In this document: positions 1-5,269 of the stretch, piece after piece
Layout: each line of letters begins with the position of its first letter
Position numbering within the stretch: the stretch's first letter is position 1
From: a virus
Taxonomy: Duplodnaviria; Heunggongvirae; Uroviricota; Caudoviricetes
IMG/VR virus record: IMGVR_UViG_2778261641_000005
Location: 1 to 5,269 of that record
Strand: one strand, 5' to 3'
DNA length: 5,269 nucleotides
Notes under the pieces: model-generated
What the model saw: the letters and a program-made list of their open reading frames with translations, nothing else
The model's database searches: none
Told to the model about the DNA's origin: nothing
Made by a program: the position numbers and the translations under genes

Positions 1-852
1 CTGGAAATCCTCGGTACATTCATCGCGGGTGTCTGGGTATCCAAGGTTCTGGGGGCTTTCGGAAAAATATCAGGTTTGCCGGTACCGCCATGGTTAAAAG
101 GCTGGATGGCTTATGCTGCTTATTTGTACTCCGATCGCGAAAATATTGGTGCCAGTGCGAAGTCATCCTGGGATTACACGAAACAAAATATTGGAGATTC
201 ATTGCGCTGGCTTGGCATTGATACCGATTTTGGTCGTAATCCTCATACCGTAAAAGGCGCAAATATTCAGTCAGATATTCCAGGTGCTGAGCCGGAACAA
301 CATGCACAGGCTACGAAGCGAGGAGAACGGAATAACAATCCGGGAAACCTTAATTTTGCTGGTCAGGCGGGGGCTTCTCTTGAACGACCGGGCGGGCGAT
401 TTGCCAGATTTGAAACCGCTTTTGATGGATTACGGGCTCTTGCTCGTCAGTTAATGCTGTACGCCGGACGGGGAATAAACAGTGTGGAGAAAATTATCTC
501 TACCTGGGCACCTGCGTCTGATAATAACAACACAACCGCGTATATCAGGGCTGTATCGCAACGACTGGGAGTGGATCCCCGGGCTGCCCTGAATATGAGC
601 GATCCGCAAACCATGTCAGCATTGATGAGCAGCATTATCCAGCATGAGAATGGAAGAAATATCTATTCTCGAGAGCTGATTAATAAGGCTGCCGTGGCGG
701 GAATTAGTGGCAAAGTGACAGAGGTTAACCAGCAAAATACCTACCATATTTACGGTGGCGGAGATCCGCACGCTGTCGGTAATGAGGTTGCACGTCGGCA
801 ACAGTCTGCAAATGCTCAGGTCATGCGAAGTAATCAGGTGAGGGTGGGTTAG
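1..852 (+). CDS. Probable phage tail tape measure protein, C-terminal part (5' end lies outside the window)
   Basis: Frame 1 is open from base 1 (LEILGTFIAGVWVSKVLGAF... precedes the first Met at 76) and stops at TAG 850-852. A hydrophobic segment near the start is typical of tape measure proteins. It sits immediately upstream of coupled baseplate genes. Product assignment rests on position and composition, not on a search. Confidence 0.55.
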   Translation: MEILGTFIAGVWVSKVLGAFGKISGLPVPPWLKGWMAYAAYLYSDRENIGASAKSSWDYTKQNIGDSLRWLGIDTDFGRNPHTVKGANIQSDIPGAEPEQHAQATKRGERNNNPGNLNFAGQAGASLERPGGRFARFETAFDGLRALARQLMLYAGRGINSVEKIISTWAPASDNNNTTAYIRAVSQRLGVDPRAALNMSDPQTMSALMSSIIQHENGRNIYSRELINKAAVAGISGKVTEVNQQNTYHIYGGGDPHAVGNEVARRQQSANAQVMRSNQVRVG

Positions 853-1439
853 TGGATATTCTCTCTACACTTTTTCATCAGCAGAGCAGAAAAATAGGAA
901 TGATTGTTCCCAGTGTTGTTATTTCAGAGAAGCATACAGATATGCTTGAAATAACAGAGCATCCGGTAGAGGTCGGGGCCGCTGTCGCTGATCATGCCTA
1001 TAAAAAACCGTCAGAAGTGGTGATGGAGGTTGGTTTCGCCGGTGGCGGCGCATTGCTGGATTTTGCCAGTAACCTGACGGCTACCAGCCTGCTCGGCCTG
1101 AGTCCTCAGCAGACGTATCAGGAGCTACTGGATCTGCAGGAAAGCCGTATCCCCTTCGATGTGGTAACCGGTAAACGGCTGTACAGCAACATGTTGATCC
1201 GGGCGCTGGAAGTGACGACGGACAAGACAACAGAAAACGTCCTGTCCGCCGTCCTCACCCTGAGGGAGGTCATTATCTCCCGGACACAGCAGATTACCGT
1301 CGCGGATAAAACCAACATGAAGGAAGGGGCCAGCACGTCGGCGGTACAGAACAGCGGCAACAAAACCACAAAACCTCCAGATACTTCACTGCTGAAAAGC
1401 ATCACGGGTAACGTGGCGTCATTACTGGGGGGCGGCTAA
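852..1439 (+). CDS. Phage tail/baseplate-associated protein of unassigned family (195 aa)
   Basis: GTG start overlaps the upstream stop (TAGTG); purine-rich GAGGGTGGG lies just upstream. Long ORF with coding-like composition, co-oriented and coupled to neighbours. No family recognised with certainty. Confidence 0.7.
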   Translation: MDILSTLFHQQSRKIGMIVPSVVISEKHTDMLEITEHPVEVGAAVADHAYKKPSEVVMEVGFAGGGALLDFASNLTATSLLGLSPQQTYQELLDLQESRIPFDVVTGKRLYSNMLIRALEVTTDKTTENVLSAVLTLREVIISRTQQITVADKTNMKEGASTSAVQNSGNKTTKPPDTSLLKSITGNVASLLGGG

Positions 1440-1741
1440 TGACAATTCAGGAAATTCCGCTGACAGCGGACAACCAGCAGTTCAGCATCGTCCTGGGTGG
1501 TGTCACCTGGCGGATTAGCATCATATGGCGCGATCTGTACTGGATTATGGACCTGCAGAACGACAGAGGGGAGCCGGTAATCTCCGGTATTCCTCTCGTC
1601 ACTGGCGCTGACCTGCTGGCGCAGTACGCCTGTATGGGGCTTGGTTTTAAGCTGGTGGTGGTCTGTGATGACAACACACAGGATTACCCCACAAAAACTG
1701 ACCTGGGCGGTCGCAGCCATTTACTGGTATCAACGGAGTAA
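1439..1741 (+). CDS. Small phage tail assembly/baseplate protein of unassigned family (100 aa)
   Basis: ATG overlaps the upstream stop (TAATG), indicating translational coupling. The ORF fills the gap between neighbours exactly. Confidence 0.65.
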   Translation: MTIQEIPLTADNQQFSIVLGGVTWRISIIWRDLYWIMDLQNDRGEPVISGIPLVTGADLLAQYACMGLGFKLVVVCDDNTQDYPTKTDLGGRSHLLVSTE

Positions 1742-1743
1742 GC

Positions 1744-2808
1744 ATGTCACAGAACTGGATGAGACATTTCGAGCTGCAGCTTGTGGACGGGAACGGTCAG
1801 GGAATTGAGCTAAGTGATTTTAAAGTCACCTTTACGATCGACTGGTTCAACATCAGCAGCGCGTCCCGGGTAGGGACTATCAAAATTTATAACCTCTCGG
1901 CAGATACTGTGAACCGAATCACCGGGCAGGAGTTTTCGAAAGTGCGTCTGATTGCCGGTTACGACGGTATCGCGCCGGAGGTGTCGGCAAGCGACGTCGG
2001 GACCGTGCGGGAAGTTGACGCGGCGGACGTGGGTCAGAGTGATGGCCGCAATTACGGGCTGATTTTCAGCGGAGAAATTCGCTACTCGGTCACAGGAAAA
2101 GACAGCCCTATTGATTCCTATGTCCTGATTCAGGCAGCAGATACGGATCTGGCATTTGCCACCAGTATAACCTCGCAGACGCTGGCGGCCGGTTACACGG
2201 TCGCAGATGTGAACCGTGCGCTGATGAAAGACTTTGAGGCCAAAGGCGCGACCGAAGGACTGACGCCTGAAATGCCTGCTACCGTATTCCCTCGAGGGCG
2301 GGTGCTGTTCGGCATGACACGGCATCTTATGGATAACGTGGCCGGACAATGTGGCGCAACATGGCAATTTGTGGACGGTCAGCGCCAGATGGTGGCGAAT
2401 AACGAGTATGTTCACGACGCGATTGTGCTCAACAGAGCCACCGGGCTTATCGGCATGCCGCAGCAGACTATCGGCAACGGTGTAAACGTCCGCGCTCTTA
2501 TTAATCCGAACATCCGGGTTAACGGGCTTATTCAGCTGGATCAGGCTTCCGTGTACCGCACCGCGCTGTCGAACAATGATATTGCGATGGCTGGTGGGCA
2601 GATCACCGACCAGAACACGGACGGAAATATCACGCTCAGCGGCACCACAGCACAACCTGCCAGCATCGCAACGGATGGCGTTTATATTGTGCGCGGGATT
2701 ATGTACACTGGCGATACAAGGGGCCAGGCGTGGTACATGGATATGATGTGCGAAGCGCGTGGCGCGGCGGATCTTCAAAGTCAAGGAGCAATGAATCGGT
2801 GGGGATAA
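1744..2808 (+). CDS. Putative baseplate hub-like protein (354 aa; gp27/gpD/Mu gp44-like position)
   Basis: GGAG at 1734-1737 lies 6 nt upstream of ATG 1744. The ORF starts 2 nt after the upstream stop. Size and position (after tape measure, before spike) fit a hub protein in a contractile-tail baseplate module. Family not confirmed. Confidence 0.75.
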   Translation: MSQNWMRHFELQLVDGNGQGIELSDFKVTFTIDWFNISSASRVGTIKIYNLSADTVNRITGQEFSKVRLIAGYDGIAPEVSASDVGTVREVDAADVGQSDGRNYGLIFSGEIRYSVTGKDSPIDSYVLIQAADTDLAFATSITSQTLAAGYTVADVNRALMKDFEAKGATEGLTPEMPATVFPRGRVLFGMTRHLMDNVAGQCGATWQFVDGQRQMVANNEYVHDAIVLNRATGLIGMPQQTIGNGVNVRALINPNIRVNGLIQLDQASVYRTALSNNDIAMAGGQITDQNTDGNITLSGTTAQPASIATDGVYIVRGIMYTGDTRGQAWYMDMMCEARGAADLQSQGAMNRWG

Positions 2809-2810
2809 GA

Positions 2811-3275
2811 TTGAATAAGAAAGCCATTTTTATTGCAATAAGTTTACTTGTTCCGATGTCGGGATTATCCGCTCCTGGGAAGTATGAAAAAATGGCTGTT
2901 GATTTAATGGATCAGCAAAAGTTTACGCAGTGGCAACATTACGCCTCTGCTACTCCTTTTTTCGCTATGAATGGTCGCAGATTCGCCATGACCATTGATG
3001 ATTTCGCGGATATAGTCAGCAACTCCTTTCAAGAATGCGAAGACCTGGATGCCTACACCAATCGGAAAGGAGCTACGGATGATTGTAAGTCCTATGTTTA
3101 CAAAGGCATAAAGGAGTGGGTAAACCTCTCTCAAGATAAGTCTGTTAGCGATACAGCATGGAAAATGGGCCAGCGCTATGCCTTCAACACACGTAATCCT
3201 ATTGCCCATAAAAACGCATGGGATTTCAATGGGATGGCGGCCGGTATTCGCGTTGCTAAATCTCAAGGTTATTAA
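2811..3275 (+). CDS. Secreted/periplasmic protein of unknown function with N-terminal signal peptide (cargo gene)
   Basis: Proposed TTG start at 2811 gives MNKKAIFIAISLLVPMSGLSAPGKYEK..., a classic positively charged n-region plus hydrophobic core; GGTGGGG lies 7-13 nt upstream. The open frame reaches back to GTG 2730, but that would overlap the hub gene by 78 nt and bury the signal peptide. The mature part has two Cys (QECEDL...DDCKSY) and no recognised motif. The gene is AT-rich relative to the flanking structural genes. Confidence 0.6.
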   Translation: MNKKAIFIAISLLVPMSGLSAPGKYEKMAVDLMDQQKFTQWQHYASATPFFAMNGRRFAMTIDDFADIVSNSFQECEDLDAYTNRKGATDDCKSYVYKGIKEWVNLSQDKSVSDTAWKMGQRYAFNTRNPIAHKNAWDFNGMAAGIRVAKSQGY

Positions 3276-3344
3276 GTCATGGATGCACCGAAAATCATCG
3301 GTTCTTTCCCGTGTAAAAAAGTGGCTGGGCGATGATTTTTGACG

Positions 3345-3360
3345 TCCATAATATTATGGA
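3345..3360. promoter_or_regulatory. Perfect 16-bp palindrome TCCATAATATTATGGA (candidate operator)
   Basis: The sequence is exactly self-complementary. It lies in the AT-rich intergenic region immediately 3' of a TTGACG hexamer (3339-3344). Confidence 0.5.
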
Positions 3361-3437
3361 TGAACTGTTGCCAATTGCGCTAATTTTAACAAAATAATAC
3401 TGGTTAACGCATTTTTTGAACCATCTGTACACAGTAG

Positions 3438-3466
3438 TTGTCTATACTTTACCTTAAAGGTAAACT
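3438..3466 (+). promoter_or_regulatory. Candidate sigma70-like promoter overlapped by a perfect 17-bp palindrome TTTACCTTAAAGGTAAA (3448-3464)
   Basis: TTGTCT (3438-3443), 17-bp spacer, TAAACT (3461-3466); alternatively TATACT at 3443-3448 as the -10. The palindrome has 8-bp arms around a central A and overlaps the -10/+1 area, about 35-60 nt upstream of the ORF starting at 3501. Hexamer matches are imperfect. Confidence 0.35.
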
Positions 3467-3500
3467 CTGCGCTCCACTGATGTTCACTATGGGAGGGGAT

Positions 3501-3740
3501 ATGAGGAAAATCGTTAATCGTTACTTAGCCGCTGCCGGTAGTGTTATGGACATTATGCCGACTACAGATTACTGGCAATATGCTGCTTCTGGATCTGATT
3601 GTCGGGCAATAAGAAGTGATGTTAAAGTCATTGCAAGTGACATGAACAGAGTTATCAGGTATGAGTTCAAAACCCCGCAAGCAGGCGGCCGTTCTCAAAA
3701 AGCATCAGGAAAACAAAGCGTCGCAAAAAGCCGTTCCTGA
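3501..3740 (+). CDS. Small basic hypothetical protein (79 aa); possible regulator or partner of the downstream membrane protein
   Basis: Strong Shine-Dalgarno GGGAGGGG (3491-3498) sits 2-4 nt before ATG 3501. The frame is open from TTG 3438, but the RBS favours 3501. The C-terminus is Lys/Arg/Ser-rich. The last 80 nt overlap the next ORF in another frame, so reality is uncertain. Confidence 0.45.
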   Translation: MRKIVNRYLAAAGSVMDIMPTTDYWQYAASGSDCRAIRSDVKVIASDMNRVIRYEFKTPQAGGRSQKASGKQSVAKSRS

Positions 3741-4233
3741 TTCGGATGGTATCGACGAAGATATTGATTCCTCGGAATATGATGAGTCTCAGGAAGTAGT
3801 GGAAAAGCTGTCTGCAGTTGCCAACCTTGATCCTGAGCTAAAATCGAAGTTAACACCTGAACTTCTTGAGAGAGTTTCTAAGAACCCGAAGGTTATTGCC
3901 ATGTTTCAGCAGGAGTCTTTTCAGGGACCACTCCCACCTCCTGCTATGCTCTTACAATATAATCAAATATTACCCGGCGGCGCTGAGAGAATTTTCAGGC
4001 TAACCGAAAAAGAGCAAGAGCATAGGCATAAGACGCAAAGTGATGCATTACTTGGTGCGGTTTCACGCGACAAACGTGGGCAATGGATGGGATTTTGCAT
4101 TGCAATGGTAGTGCTTATAATGGCTGCGTTTTTTGCTAATCGCGGTAACACTTGGTTCGCAGGTACTCTTGCTACTTTAGATCTCGTAGGATTAACTACA
4201 GTGTTTGTTTATGGTAGGAAGAAACCTAAATAA
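3661..4233 (+). CDS. DUF2335-like predicted membrane protein (190 aa)
   Basis: Contains FQGPLPPPAMLLQYNQILPGGAERIFRLTEKEQEHRHK, which I recall as the hallmark of the DUF2335 family (motif recall, not searched). This is followed by two predicted transmembrane helices (WMGFCIAMVVLIMAAFFA and FAGTLATLDLVGLTTVFVY) and a basic tail GRKKPK. The N-terminus is a charged low-complexity region. ATG 3661 is the only start in the open frame, and its own SD is weak (AGGT). Confidence 0.7.
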   Translation: MSSKPRKQAAVLKKHQENKASQKAVPDSDGIDEDIDSSEYDESQEVVEKLSAVANLDPELKSKLTPELLERVSKNPKVIAMFQQESFQGPLPPPAMLLQYNQILPGGAERIFRLTEKEQEHRHKTQSDALLGAVSRDKRGQWMGFCIAMVVLIMAAFFANRGNTWFAGTLATLDLVGLTTVFVYGRKKPK

Positions 4234-4248
4234 TCCATACATCCTTTC

Positions 4249-4276
4249 AAACCCGCTTCGGCGGGTTTTTTGCTTT
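4249..4276 (+). terminator. Rho-independent terminator
   Basis: Stem AAACCCGC (4249-4256), loop TTCG (4257-4260), stem GCGGGTTT (4261-4268), running into a T tract (4266-4271) then GCTTT. It lies 16 nt after the TAA stop at 4231-4233. Confidence 0.8.
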
Positions 4277-4290
4277 CTGGAGCCTACTAA

Positions 4291-5043
4291 ATGGCCGTAT
4301 CTGACCAAACCCGCAGCGGCGACCTTGCCGAAACATTCAAATCTGAACGGGAAACCACAAAGAACCAGATCCGCGTCGCTTTGCCTGGCATTATTCAGTC
4401 ATTCGATCCTGACGCGGTTACGGCGGTTGTGCAGCCTGCTATCCGTTACGTTGAGATCGATAACGATGGTAACCGGGTGACAAAACCTTACCCGCTGCTG
4501 GTGGATGTTCCCGTGGTATTCCCAACGGCCGGGGGAGTTACTTTAACGTTGCCGGTGAGCCCCGGCGATGAGTGCGAACTTAAGTTTCAAGACCGCTGTA
4601 TTGATTTCTTCTGGCAAAACGGTGGAGTGCAGGAACCTGTCGACGACCGCATACATGACCTGTCCGACGCCACCTGCTCAGTGGGTCAAATATCTCAGCC
4701 CAACAAAATTAAGAATGTCAGCACCACGTCGGCGCAGCTTCGAAGTGTTGATGGAAGTACGTACATCGACCTTAATCCGGATACGCAGAAAATTAAAATC
4801 GTAGCGCCTGGCGGTCTGGATGTAGTTACCCCGCTGGCCGACTTCTCGGCGAAAGTAACCATTCACGGGCTACTGTCCTGGCTGGGTGGAATGGTGGGGT
4901 CTGTTGCTTCTGGAGTTGCATCCAAAATCACCGGCGCTGTCGAGTTTATCGGTACCGTTAAAGCTAACGGCAAGTCAATTGATGATACGCACACGCACGG
5001 CGGGGTTCAGCGAGGCGGAAGCAACACAGACGGGGTGAACTGA
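4291..5043 (+). CDS. Baseplate central spike / baseplate assembly protein V-like (250 aa)
   Basis: GGAG at 4279-4282 lies 8 nt before the ATG. The N-terminal region resembles gpV/Gp138-type spike proteins. The C-terminus has a Gly-rich region ending in DDTHTHGGVQRGGSNTDG, with a His-x-His motif like the apex of P2 gpV-type spikes. Position is directly upstream of the next baseplate gene. Confidence 0.85.
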   Translation: MAVSDQTRSGDLAETFKSERETTKNQIRVALPGIIQSFDPDAVTAVVQPAIRYVEIDNDGNRVTKPYPLLVDVPVVFPTAGGVTLTLPVSPGDECELKFQDRCIDFFWQNGGVQEPVDDRIHDLSDATCSVGQISQPNKIKNVSTTSAQLRSVDGSTYIDLNPDTQKIKIVAPGGLDVVTPLADFSAKVTIHGLLSWLGGMVGSVASGVASKITGAVEFIGTVKANGKSIDDTHTHGGVQRGGSNTDGVN

Positions 5044-5269
5044 TGCGATACAGACGCGAAGACGCCGACGGTGATTACACCTTTGGCAGCGGCGATGATA
5101 CCTGGCTGATTAACTCACCGGAGGCCGTGGCGCAGGCGGTAAAAACGCGATTCGAATTGTGGTATGGGCAATGGTTTCTCGACACCACCGAGGGGACTCC
5201 GTGGATCCAGTCCGTACTCGGTAAGCAGAAGCCGGAAACCTACAACCTGGCGATCCGTAAGCGCATCCT
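5043..5269 (+). CDS. Phage baseplate protein (gpW/gp25-like position), N-terminal part (3' end outside the window)
   Basis: ATG overlaps the spike stop (TGATG). My own translation gives MRYRREDADGDYTFGSGDDTWLINSPEAVAQAVKTRFELWYGQWFLDTTEGTPWIQSVLGKQKPETYNLAIRKRI with no stop to the window end. It is absent from the ORF track only because it is unterminated. Family assigned by position only. Confidence 0.6.
   Translation, partial: MRYRREDADGDYTFGSGDDTWLINSPEAVAQAVKTRFELWYGQWFLDTTEGTPWIQSVLGKQKPETYNLAIRKRI

Follow-up and report, generated by a model that had tools for sequence, protein, structure and literature searches.

Morons and accessory slots in prophage late operons

A moron is defined in PMC3714127 as an insert that has a promoter at one edge and ends in a factor-independent terminator, an arrangement that keeps interference with neighbouring prophage genes to a minimum. 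The lambdoid morons of HK97, HK022 and lambda (Juhala et al. 2000, as reported in PMC3714127) are compositionally distinct inserts between late genes, each with a factor-independent terminator behind it, and lytic expression is spared by Q antitermination. The 'ant moron' of P22-like phages, located between gene 16 and the tailspike gene 9, is similarly a single variable region, in the morphogenetic part of a Q-type (gp23) late operon. It lies just 5' of the gene for a host-recognition or penetration device, differs in content among otherwise syntenic relatives and may affect read-through to the gene behind it (PMC2629481). Fixed sites with rapidly exchanged accessory genes also occur in temperate myoviruses, such as the Z/fun hotspot of P2 in the tail and baseplate gene region, downstream of a baseplate gene (Rousset 2022), and terminator-delimited transcription units are a noted feature of prophage hotspot islands (iLund4u preprint 10.1101/2024.10.15.618418).

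Here we analyse a 5,269-nucleotide stretch of DNA (the window; positions 1 to 5,269 of IMG/VR record IMGVR_UViG_2778261641_000005), in which a temperate phage with a contractile tail encodes part of its tail and baseplate module. Among named phages, Salmonella phage SEN34 (genus Brunovirus) is the nearest, and prophages related to the window are present in 353 of 5,426 complete E. coli genomes. Between its baseplate hub and central spike genes the window carries a slot for accessory genes (cargo), and a hairpin followed by a T tract (4249–4276) stands at the downstream end of this slot.

The slot resembles the described systems to different degrees. Each lambdoid moron has a separate terminator and the inserts belong to siphovirus tails, whereas here one conserved terminator sequence serves at least 60 cargo sets in a single slot of a contractile-tail (SEN34-type) baseplate, where the cargo promoter is only a candidate. 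The P22-like 'ant moron' is the closest described counterpart of the slot and its terminator, but it differs in morphotype and genes and carries its own repressors and antisense RNA (PMC2629481). The P2 late genes, in turn, are activated by Ogr and not by antitermination, and none of the cargo proteins that we tested matched a PADLOC defence model, which sets the slot apart from the defence hotspots of P2 and other prophages. To our knowledge, no family-wide conserved edge terminator has been described for the P22 'ant moron' region, and a search of the accessible literature returned no description of a cargo slot between hub and spike genes.

Anatomy of the slot and of the pre-spike hairpin

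The window opens with the C-terminus of the tape-measure protein (to 852), labelled a lytic transglycosylase in RefSeq relatives, followed by a Dit-like baseplate protein (852–1439) and a baseplate plug (1439–1741). The conserved left flank of the slot is the baseplate hub gene (1744–2808, plus strand), which was assigned from the SEN34 counterpart annotated 'baseplate hub' and from a Pfam match to E217_GP41 that falls below the curated cut-off. The conserved right flank, also on the plus strand, is the baseplate central spike gene (4291–5043), recognised by its Pfam spike N-terminal domain (E = 3.7e-36) and GpV apex motif, and the next baseplate gene starts at 5043. Hub and spike genes, adjacent in relatives, are separated here by 1,482 nt of extra DNA. 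This stretch (~2810–4290) is low in G+C, with values of 0.385–0.465 across 2800–4290 against 0.52–0.58 in the flanks. Extra DNA between genes that are otherwise neighbours, a deviating composition and a downstream factor-independent terminator, the last represented by the hairpin at 4249–4276, are all characteristic of morons.

All cargo genes in the window lie on the plus strand. The first (2811–3275), defined from the ORF list and by protein clustering, encodes a 154-aa protein of family F9 with a signal-peptide-like N-terminus. This protein was also found in two other loci (L060 and L064) and had no Pfam, NCBIfam, PHROG or PADLOC match; G+C in its region is 0.41–0.46 compared with 0.55 in the flanks. 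F9 replaces most of a gene termed F0, of which a 3'-end remnant (3279–3335; phrog_3443) was recognised by translation, blastn and PHROG. The remnant comprises the last 18 codons, its translation MDAPKIIGSFPCKKVAGR* matches the F0 C-terminus ...SMDAPKIIGSFPCKKVDG, and blastn places 3278–3328 against loci L002 and L024. An inverted repeat, AAAATCATCG/CGATGATTTT (3291–3300 and 3330–3339), flanks the remnant.

Downstream, an AT-rich non-coding leader (3336–3500; G+C 0.385) forms the candidate promoter region of a two-gene cassette, based on a promoter scan, inverted repeats and composition. A perfect 16-bp palindrome, TCCATAATATTATGGA, lies in this leader at 3345–3360, 10 nt past the F0 remnant, and could be an operator for a regulator of the putative cargo promoter. 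The first gene of the cassette is a small ORF of 79 aa (3501–3740; phrog_26284, E = 2e-12) that has a strong GGGAGGGG RBS, is unannotated in RefSeq relatives and overlaps the start of the second gene by 80 nt. Since this overlap recurs in a distant Yersinia cassette (L014), the small ORF is probably a real gene. The second gene, which is the last of the cargo (3661–4233), encodes a DUF2335 membrane protein (Pfam PF10097, E = 1.8e-18) of phrog_3996, a family in the category 'moron, auxiliary metabolic gene and host takeover'. An intact F0 precedes the same cassette in the E. coli prophages E308 and PI24. The cassette is found at full length in 16 of the 5,426 E. coli genomes, the other matches being confined to a 44-nt block of terminator and RBS; the phage collection returned no match, and no independent origin of the cassette was traced in these searches.

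The hairpin begins 15 nt past the TAA stop codon (4231–4233) of the co-oriented DUF2335 gene. Read directly from the plus-strand sequence, it consists of the arms AAACCCGC (4249–4256) and GCGGGTTT (4261–4268) around a TTCG loop (4257–4260). The preliminary description had called this a GC-rich 8-bp stem; the length is correct, and the composition is a core of five G-C pairs, with a C(UUCG)G tetraloop, plus three A-U pairs formed with the first three U of the tract. The T tract, TTTTTTGCTTT (4266–4276, plus strand), therefore shares its first three T with the stem; it is made up of six T (4266–4271), then GC, then TTT (4274–4276). From the six-T run to the spike ATG (4291) there are 19 nt, within which the spike RBS GGAG (4279–4282) is part of a conserved block, GCTTTCTGGAGCCTAC. 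The previously given spacing of 15 nt between hairpin and RBS agrees with our reading when counted from the end of the G-C core (4265).

A pattern scan ranked 4249–4268 as the top terminator-like site in the window (8 pairs, 5 G-C, 4-nt loop). Sites that satisfy a loose definition are not enriched over the window (5 found, 4.9 expected). A strict definition, requiring five consecutive G-C pairs, a loop of 3–8 and at least five T immediately after, picked out this one site, on the plus strand, compared with 0.0035 expected per dinucleotide-preserving shuffle on either strand. Folding is not weak: the 20-nt hairpin alone reaches -12.2 kcal/mol (z = -3.7), with 1 of 200 shuffles equally good, and in a 57-nt context the minimum free energy is -15 (z = -2.3). 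On the minus strand no T tract follows the stem, so that the site is unidirectional and a bidirectional terminator was ruled out.

These features agree with canonical E. coli Rho-independent terminators, which share the G-C-rich stem, the 4-nt loop (here the extra-stable C(UUCG)G), the six U and an upstream A run; we see no structural difference, and only the placement inside an essential operon is unusual. Stem and loop, adjoining U run and position 3' of a co-oriented gene are all present, and 4249–4276 is, judging by sequence, most likely a functional Rho-independent terminator. The preliminary description of a strong intrinsic terminator inside the structural operon is thus upheld by its canonical anatomy, its folding energy and its rarity under the strict pattern.

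An Rfam search of the whole window at E <= 1 gave only sub-threshold matches and involved no known RNA family; the scores were 27 bits against a gathering score of 56 for rsmX, at 4191–4271, and 19 against 42.5 for COG3860 RNA. Separately, the best sigma-70-like match of the window, TTTGCA-16-TATAAT (10/12), is located at 4094–4121, within the DUF2335 gene and ~130 nt 5' of the terminator. Such a site and the terminator could together yield a 3'-end-derived small RNA of ~150 nt.

Conservation of the hairpin and turnover of the cargo

To place the hairpin in its family, loci encoding relatives of the spike protein were taken from GTDB genomes and IMG/VR, and the hub end and spike start were located in each; removal of duplicates left 140 distinct loci. 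Cargo, defined as more than 300 nt between hub and spike, is present in 131 of them (gap of 385–2,199 nt), and 125 of these 131 have a hairpin and T run directly 5' of the spike gene. Four loci are cargo-less (L157, L018, L020 and L017; gap of -10 to 152 nt) and none of the four has the terminator. It is present in all five loci in which the hub gene was not located. Because all four cargo-less loci are distant relatives (48–61% spike identity), the association between cargo and terminator is not phylogenetically independent and should be read as suggestive.

Six cargo-bearing loci depart from the rule, two of which still have a damaged or weaker hairpin: the stem is point-mutated in L059, and L208 has a weaker variant. 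Yersinia phage YP3 (L004) has a different, weak hairpin. In the other three (L035, L168 and L183), which share a single cargo type, the hairpin is replaced entirely. This is the only cargo type without any hairpin, and its 73-aa Cys-rich (CxxC...CxxC) ORF, in the region 5582–6000 of L035 and also in L168 and L183, lies on the other strand and is directed away from the spike gene.

The family consensus, AACCCGCC-NNNN-GGCGGG-T5-6-GCTTTCTGGAGCCTAC-N3-4-ATG, is nearly constant, with GCTTTCTGGAG following the T5-6 run. A hairpin was called in 92 loci, of which 74 have the stem CCCGCC/GGCGGG and all have a T tract beginning 24–25 nt ahead of the spike ATG; the loop varies, with 22 different sequences among relatives. 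With one representative per cargo cluster, consensus identity climbs from 0.41 upstream of the stem to 0.8–0.9 from the stem onward, compared with 0.84 at third codon positions of the spike gene. The same edge is seen from the window itself, since blastn homology with relatives carrying other cargo resumes at 4246–4249, the first base of the stem. The hairpin is present in a single copy in each prophage genome, which rules it out as a dispersed repeat within prophages.

Changes in both arms that keep the hairpin were found in Trabulsiella L010 (CCCGCT/AGCGGG), Yersinia L014 (CCCAGC/GCTGGG) and L052 (GGCTGCC/GGCGGCC), and these distant-clade hairpins fold with -12.5 to -14.8 kcal/mol. The commonest allele, with an ACCC loop, reaches -15.1 kcal/mol, compared with -12.2 for the TTCG allele of the window. 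A covariation count over 20 diverse variants, in a MAFFT alignment that misplaces the two most divergent stems, gave 94% of cells paired and double changes at two pairs, with 21 of 500 shuffles equal. These statistics are weak because the stem is almost invariant. As the variation is too small for covariation, the case rests on conservation, loop variability and the individual compensated variants.

Upstream of this constant edge the content of the slot is highly diverse, with 67 cargo types and 47 cargo protein families in the 131 cargo-bearing loci. F0 is the first slot gene in 55 of the 67 types. Its product (phrog_3443) has 108–119 aa and a signal-peptide-like N-terminal segment, and the gene begins with a start codon that overlaps the hub stop. 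Minimal loci (L187, L109, L149 and L230) consist of hub, F0, terminator and spike alone, and F0 may otherwise be trailed by one to three extra genes. The commonest cargo is a pair of unannotated proteins of 223–266 and 123–142 aa (phrog_22649 and phrog_5176). Cargo names in RefSeq for E. coli relatives include YafO toxin, DUF4282, HMG-box protein and STY1065 family; among the cargo families, searches against Pfam, NCBIfam, PHROG and PADLOC annotated only DUF2335, phrog_3996 and one weak Mu F-like match. On the left side, blastn homology with relatives carrying other cargo stops at ~2774–2776, about 34 nt before the hub stop. With breakpoints thus inside the hub 3' end, the last ~11 hub codons (2774–2808) vary with cargo type. 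The usual start of the first cargo gene at, or overlapping, the hub stop suggests translational coupling to the late gene.

The survey speaks against the earlier proposal that the terminator was imported with the cargo and that the insertion affects tail gene stoichiometry, as the terminator holds the same position in 125 of 131 cargo-bearing loci. Because it is kept across 67 cargo sets, the terminator is the fixed downstream edge of the slot and not private to the DUF2335 cargo. The exact 44-nt block that includes the TTCG loop (4247–4290) recurs at 100% identity in E. coli genomes whose cargo is different, such as BH100, and the same allele occurs in minimal loci with F0 alone; in L049 and L009, too, the cargo is unrelated and the loop is TTCG. 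This TTCG allele is shared by all close DUF2335 cassettes.

An informative case is the Yersinia artesiana prophage L014 (5917–5990), in which two terminators are arranged in tandem. The DUF2335 cassette brings its own, AACCCGC-TCCG-GCGGGTTTTT-GCTTTCT, and 10 nt after it follows the resident clade terminator, AACCCAGC-CTTTGC-GCTGGGTTTTTT. Since this cassette has its own terminator before the resident one, cassette and terminator allele can travel together, and the tandem appears to be the footprint of a cassette imported with its terminator. Position and function belong to the slot, and only the allele may be linked to the cargo. Cargo would be exchanged through recombination that falls between the end of the hub gene and the stem foot, with an occasional crossover downstream of the hairpin that would let the loop allele travel with the cassette.

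Late transcription and the role of the terminator

Late transcripts from upstream have to pass the terminator to reach the spike, baseplate and fibre genes, given its location inside the structural operon. The preliminary description made this point and offered three ways out: late-gene antitermination, a partially efficient terminator or an unrecognised spike promoter. Q-modified RNA polymerase, as known from lambda, 82 and 21, resists intrinsic terminators throughout the late operon. A Q-family antiterminator gene lies upstream of the lysis genes in all four complete relatives examined (SEN34, YP3, E308 and PI24), which also share a same-strand order of terminase, head, tail, hub, cargo, spike, baseplate and fibre genes. 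Late-gene antitermination is thus the option that these sequences support, since the relatives encode Q and Q-modified polymerase is terminator-resistant. The Q locus lies beyond the window, and we infer its presence in the window's phage from these relatives.

An arrangement like lambda PR'-tR' is seen in PI24, which is 100% identical to positions 3290–4290 of the window. Its Q gene (8427–9050) is followed by a PR'-like promoter, TTGACT-17-TAAATT, at 9093–9121, between Q and the holin gene (at 9484), and 34 nt past this promoter by a tR'-like terminator (9155–9183; 13 bp, -18.6 kcal/mol). A further strong terminator lies past the lysis genes (10743–10763), and the pre-spike terminator is at 30015–30034. 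E308 has TTGACA-18-CATAAT directly after Q, and post-lysis and pre-spike terminators as in PI24. The relatives hence show both the placement of Q and the promoter with a close terminator that mark a Q-antiterminated late operon, the latter at the level of sequence patterns. By locus, the PR'/tR'-like arrangement after Q and the post-lysis terminator were recorded at 9093–9183 and 10743–10763 of L107 and at 3807–3836 and 5598–5618 of L105. Q gene length varies between related prophages (519, 624, 798 and 804 nt), in keeping with a mosaic exchange of this late regulator.

We hypothesise that the terminator is the boundary of a moron slot, stopping cargo transcripts in the lysogen and overridden by Q in lytic growth, and consider this the probable explanation. 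Such a slot would be a feature of SEN34-like (Brunovirus-type) temperate myoviruses, placed between their hub and spike genes. As long as the prophage is repressed, transcription begun within the cargo, here the small ORF and DUF2335 cassette behind its 165-nt AT-rich leader, would halt at the hairpin and U tract. With cargo transcripts stopped there, the spike, baseplate-wedge and tail-fibre genes would remain silent in the lysogen. After induction, Q-modified polymerase from the late promoter would read through the pre-spike terminator, having also passed the tR'-like and post-lysis terminators upstream, and because of this read-through virion gene expression would be uninterrupted.

The absence of the element from all four cargo-less relatives fits this proposal, as does the orientation of the gene in the sole hairpin-less cargo type. 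Two observations count against it. The promoter-like sites in the leader are weak; the candidate cargo promoter, TTGCCA-16-CAAAAT at 3368–3395, has 9/12 matches and is no commoner than in shuffled sequence. In addition, the minimal loci keep the terminator, although no promoter is apparent for their F0, which starts at the hub stop codon. Shielding from a cargo promoter therefore cannot fully account for the terminator unless an F0 promoter lies inside the hub gene. For the minimal loci, either such a promoter exists or the terminator has an added role as a partial attenuator in lytic growth.

A partial terminator that acts as an attenuator in lytic growth, setting virion protein ratios by letting fewer transcripts reach the spike, baseplate and fibre genes than cover the upstream head, sheath and tube genes, is unlikely to be the main explanation, although it has precedents. 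The T-phi terminator of T7, located after gene 10, is an internal and partly efficient late terminator. The P22 'ant moron', too, is thought to affect late-promoter polymerases reaching the tailspike gene (PMC2629481). Conservation across the family, extending to minimal hub-F0-terminator-spike loci without an evident cargo promoter, would also be expected of an attenuator. However, the relatives encode Q, and polymerase modified by Q resists intrinsic terminators, as is generally known for lambda, 82 and 21. The junction moreover divides hub from spike, which are both low-copy baseplate parts, and not high-copy from low-copy components, and cargo-less relatives do without the terminator.

We are more doubtful that the hairpin is a conserved 'socket' that defines, and perhaps promotes, plug-and-play exchange of cassettes across this enterobacterial prophage family. 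The route might be hairpin-directed illegitimate recombination or template switching during replication, for example, with junctions at the foot of the stem.

We also hold it improbable that the element serves in RNA stability or processing, shielding either the upstream mRNA at its 3' end or a processed spike mRNA at its 5' end. The fixed distance of 24–25 nt to the spike ATG and the strong conservation of both stem and GCTTTCTGGAG block would suit such a function, but the 5–6 U straight after a G-C stem are a termination signature that a stabiliser would not need. The element is, furthermore, absent where there is no cargo, and no Rfam family reached its threshold, rsmX being the best.

Slightly less credible again is the idea that the hairpin is a recombination or integration target for cargo exchange, its likeness to a terminator being incidental. 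In dozens of cargo types the break in homology coincides exactly with the 5' foot of the stem, and many of these types have the last cargo gene ending with its stop codon directly against the stem. Yet the cargo bears no recombinase, transposase or repeat signature, the left breakpoints inside the hub 3' end are as for homologous or illegitimate recombination under selection, and the hairpin is unique in each prophage genome. An unrecognised spike promoter overlapping or following the hairpin, which would make read-through needless, is very improbable: a promoter scan of 4230–4290 found no promoter-like site and no -35 or -10 match in the conserved block, the T tract is only 19 nt from the ATG, the nearest promoter-like site (4094–4121) is upstream of the terminator, and different cargo types share no related sequence 5' of the stem.

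Interpreted as the boundary of a moron slot, the terminator is neither a lesion nor a stoichiometry-perturbing by-product of the DUF2335 insertion but belongs to the normal design of this phage family. The classical moron scheme is already known, and in this regard the hairpin is a tidy example and no surprise; what is modestly new is one conserved terminator as the common downstream border of a very diverse slot in a large enterobacterial prophage family. The borders of the slot are easy to spot: its left one is the 3' end of the hub gene, and its right one is formed by the conserved terminator together with the RBS and the start of the spike gene. As it is well delimited and recognisable at both ends, the slot is convenient for harvesting candidate prophage-expressed accessory genes, such as those for superinfection exclusion, toxin-antitoxin systems or defence. 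It also provides a natural setting in which to test how phages, by means of Q-type antitermination, can keep insulated passenger genes within essential operons.
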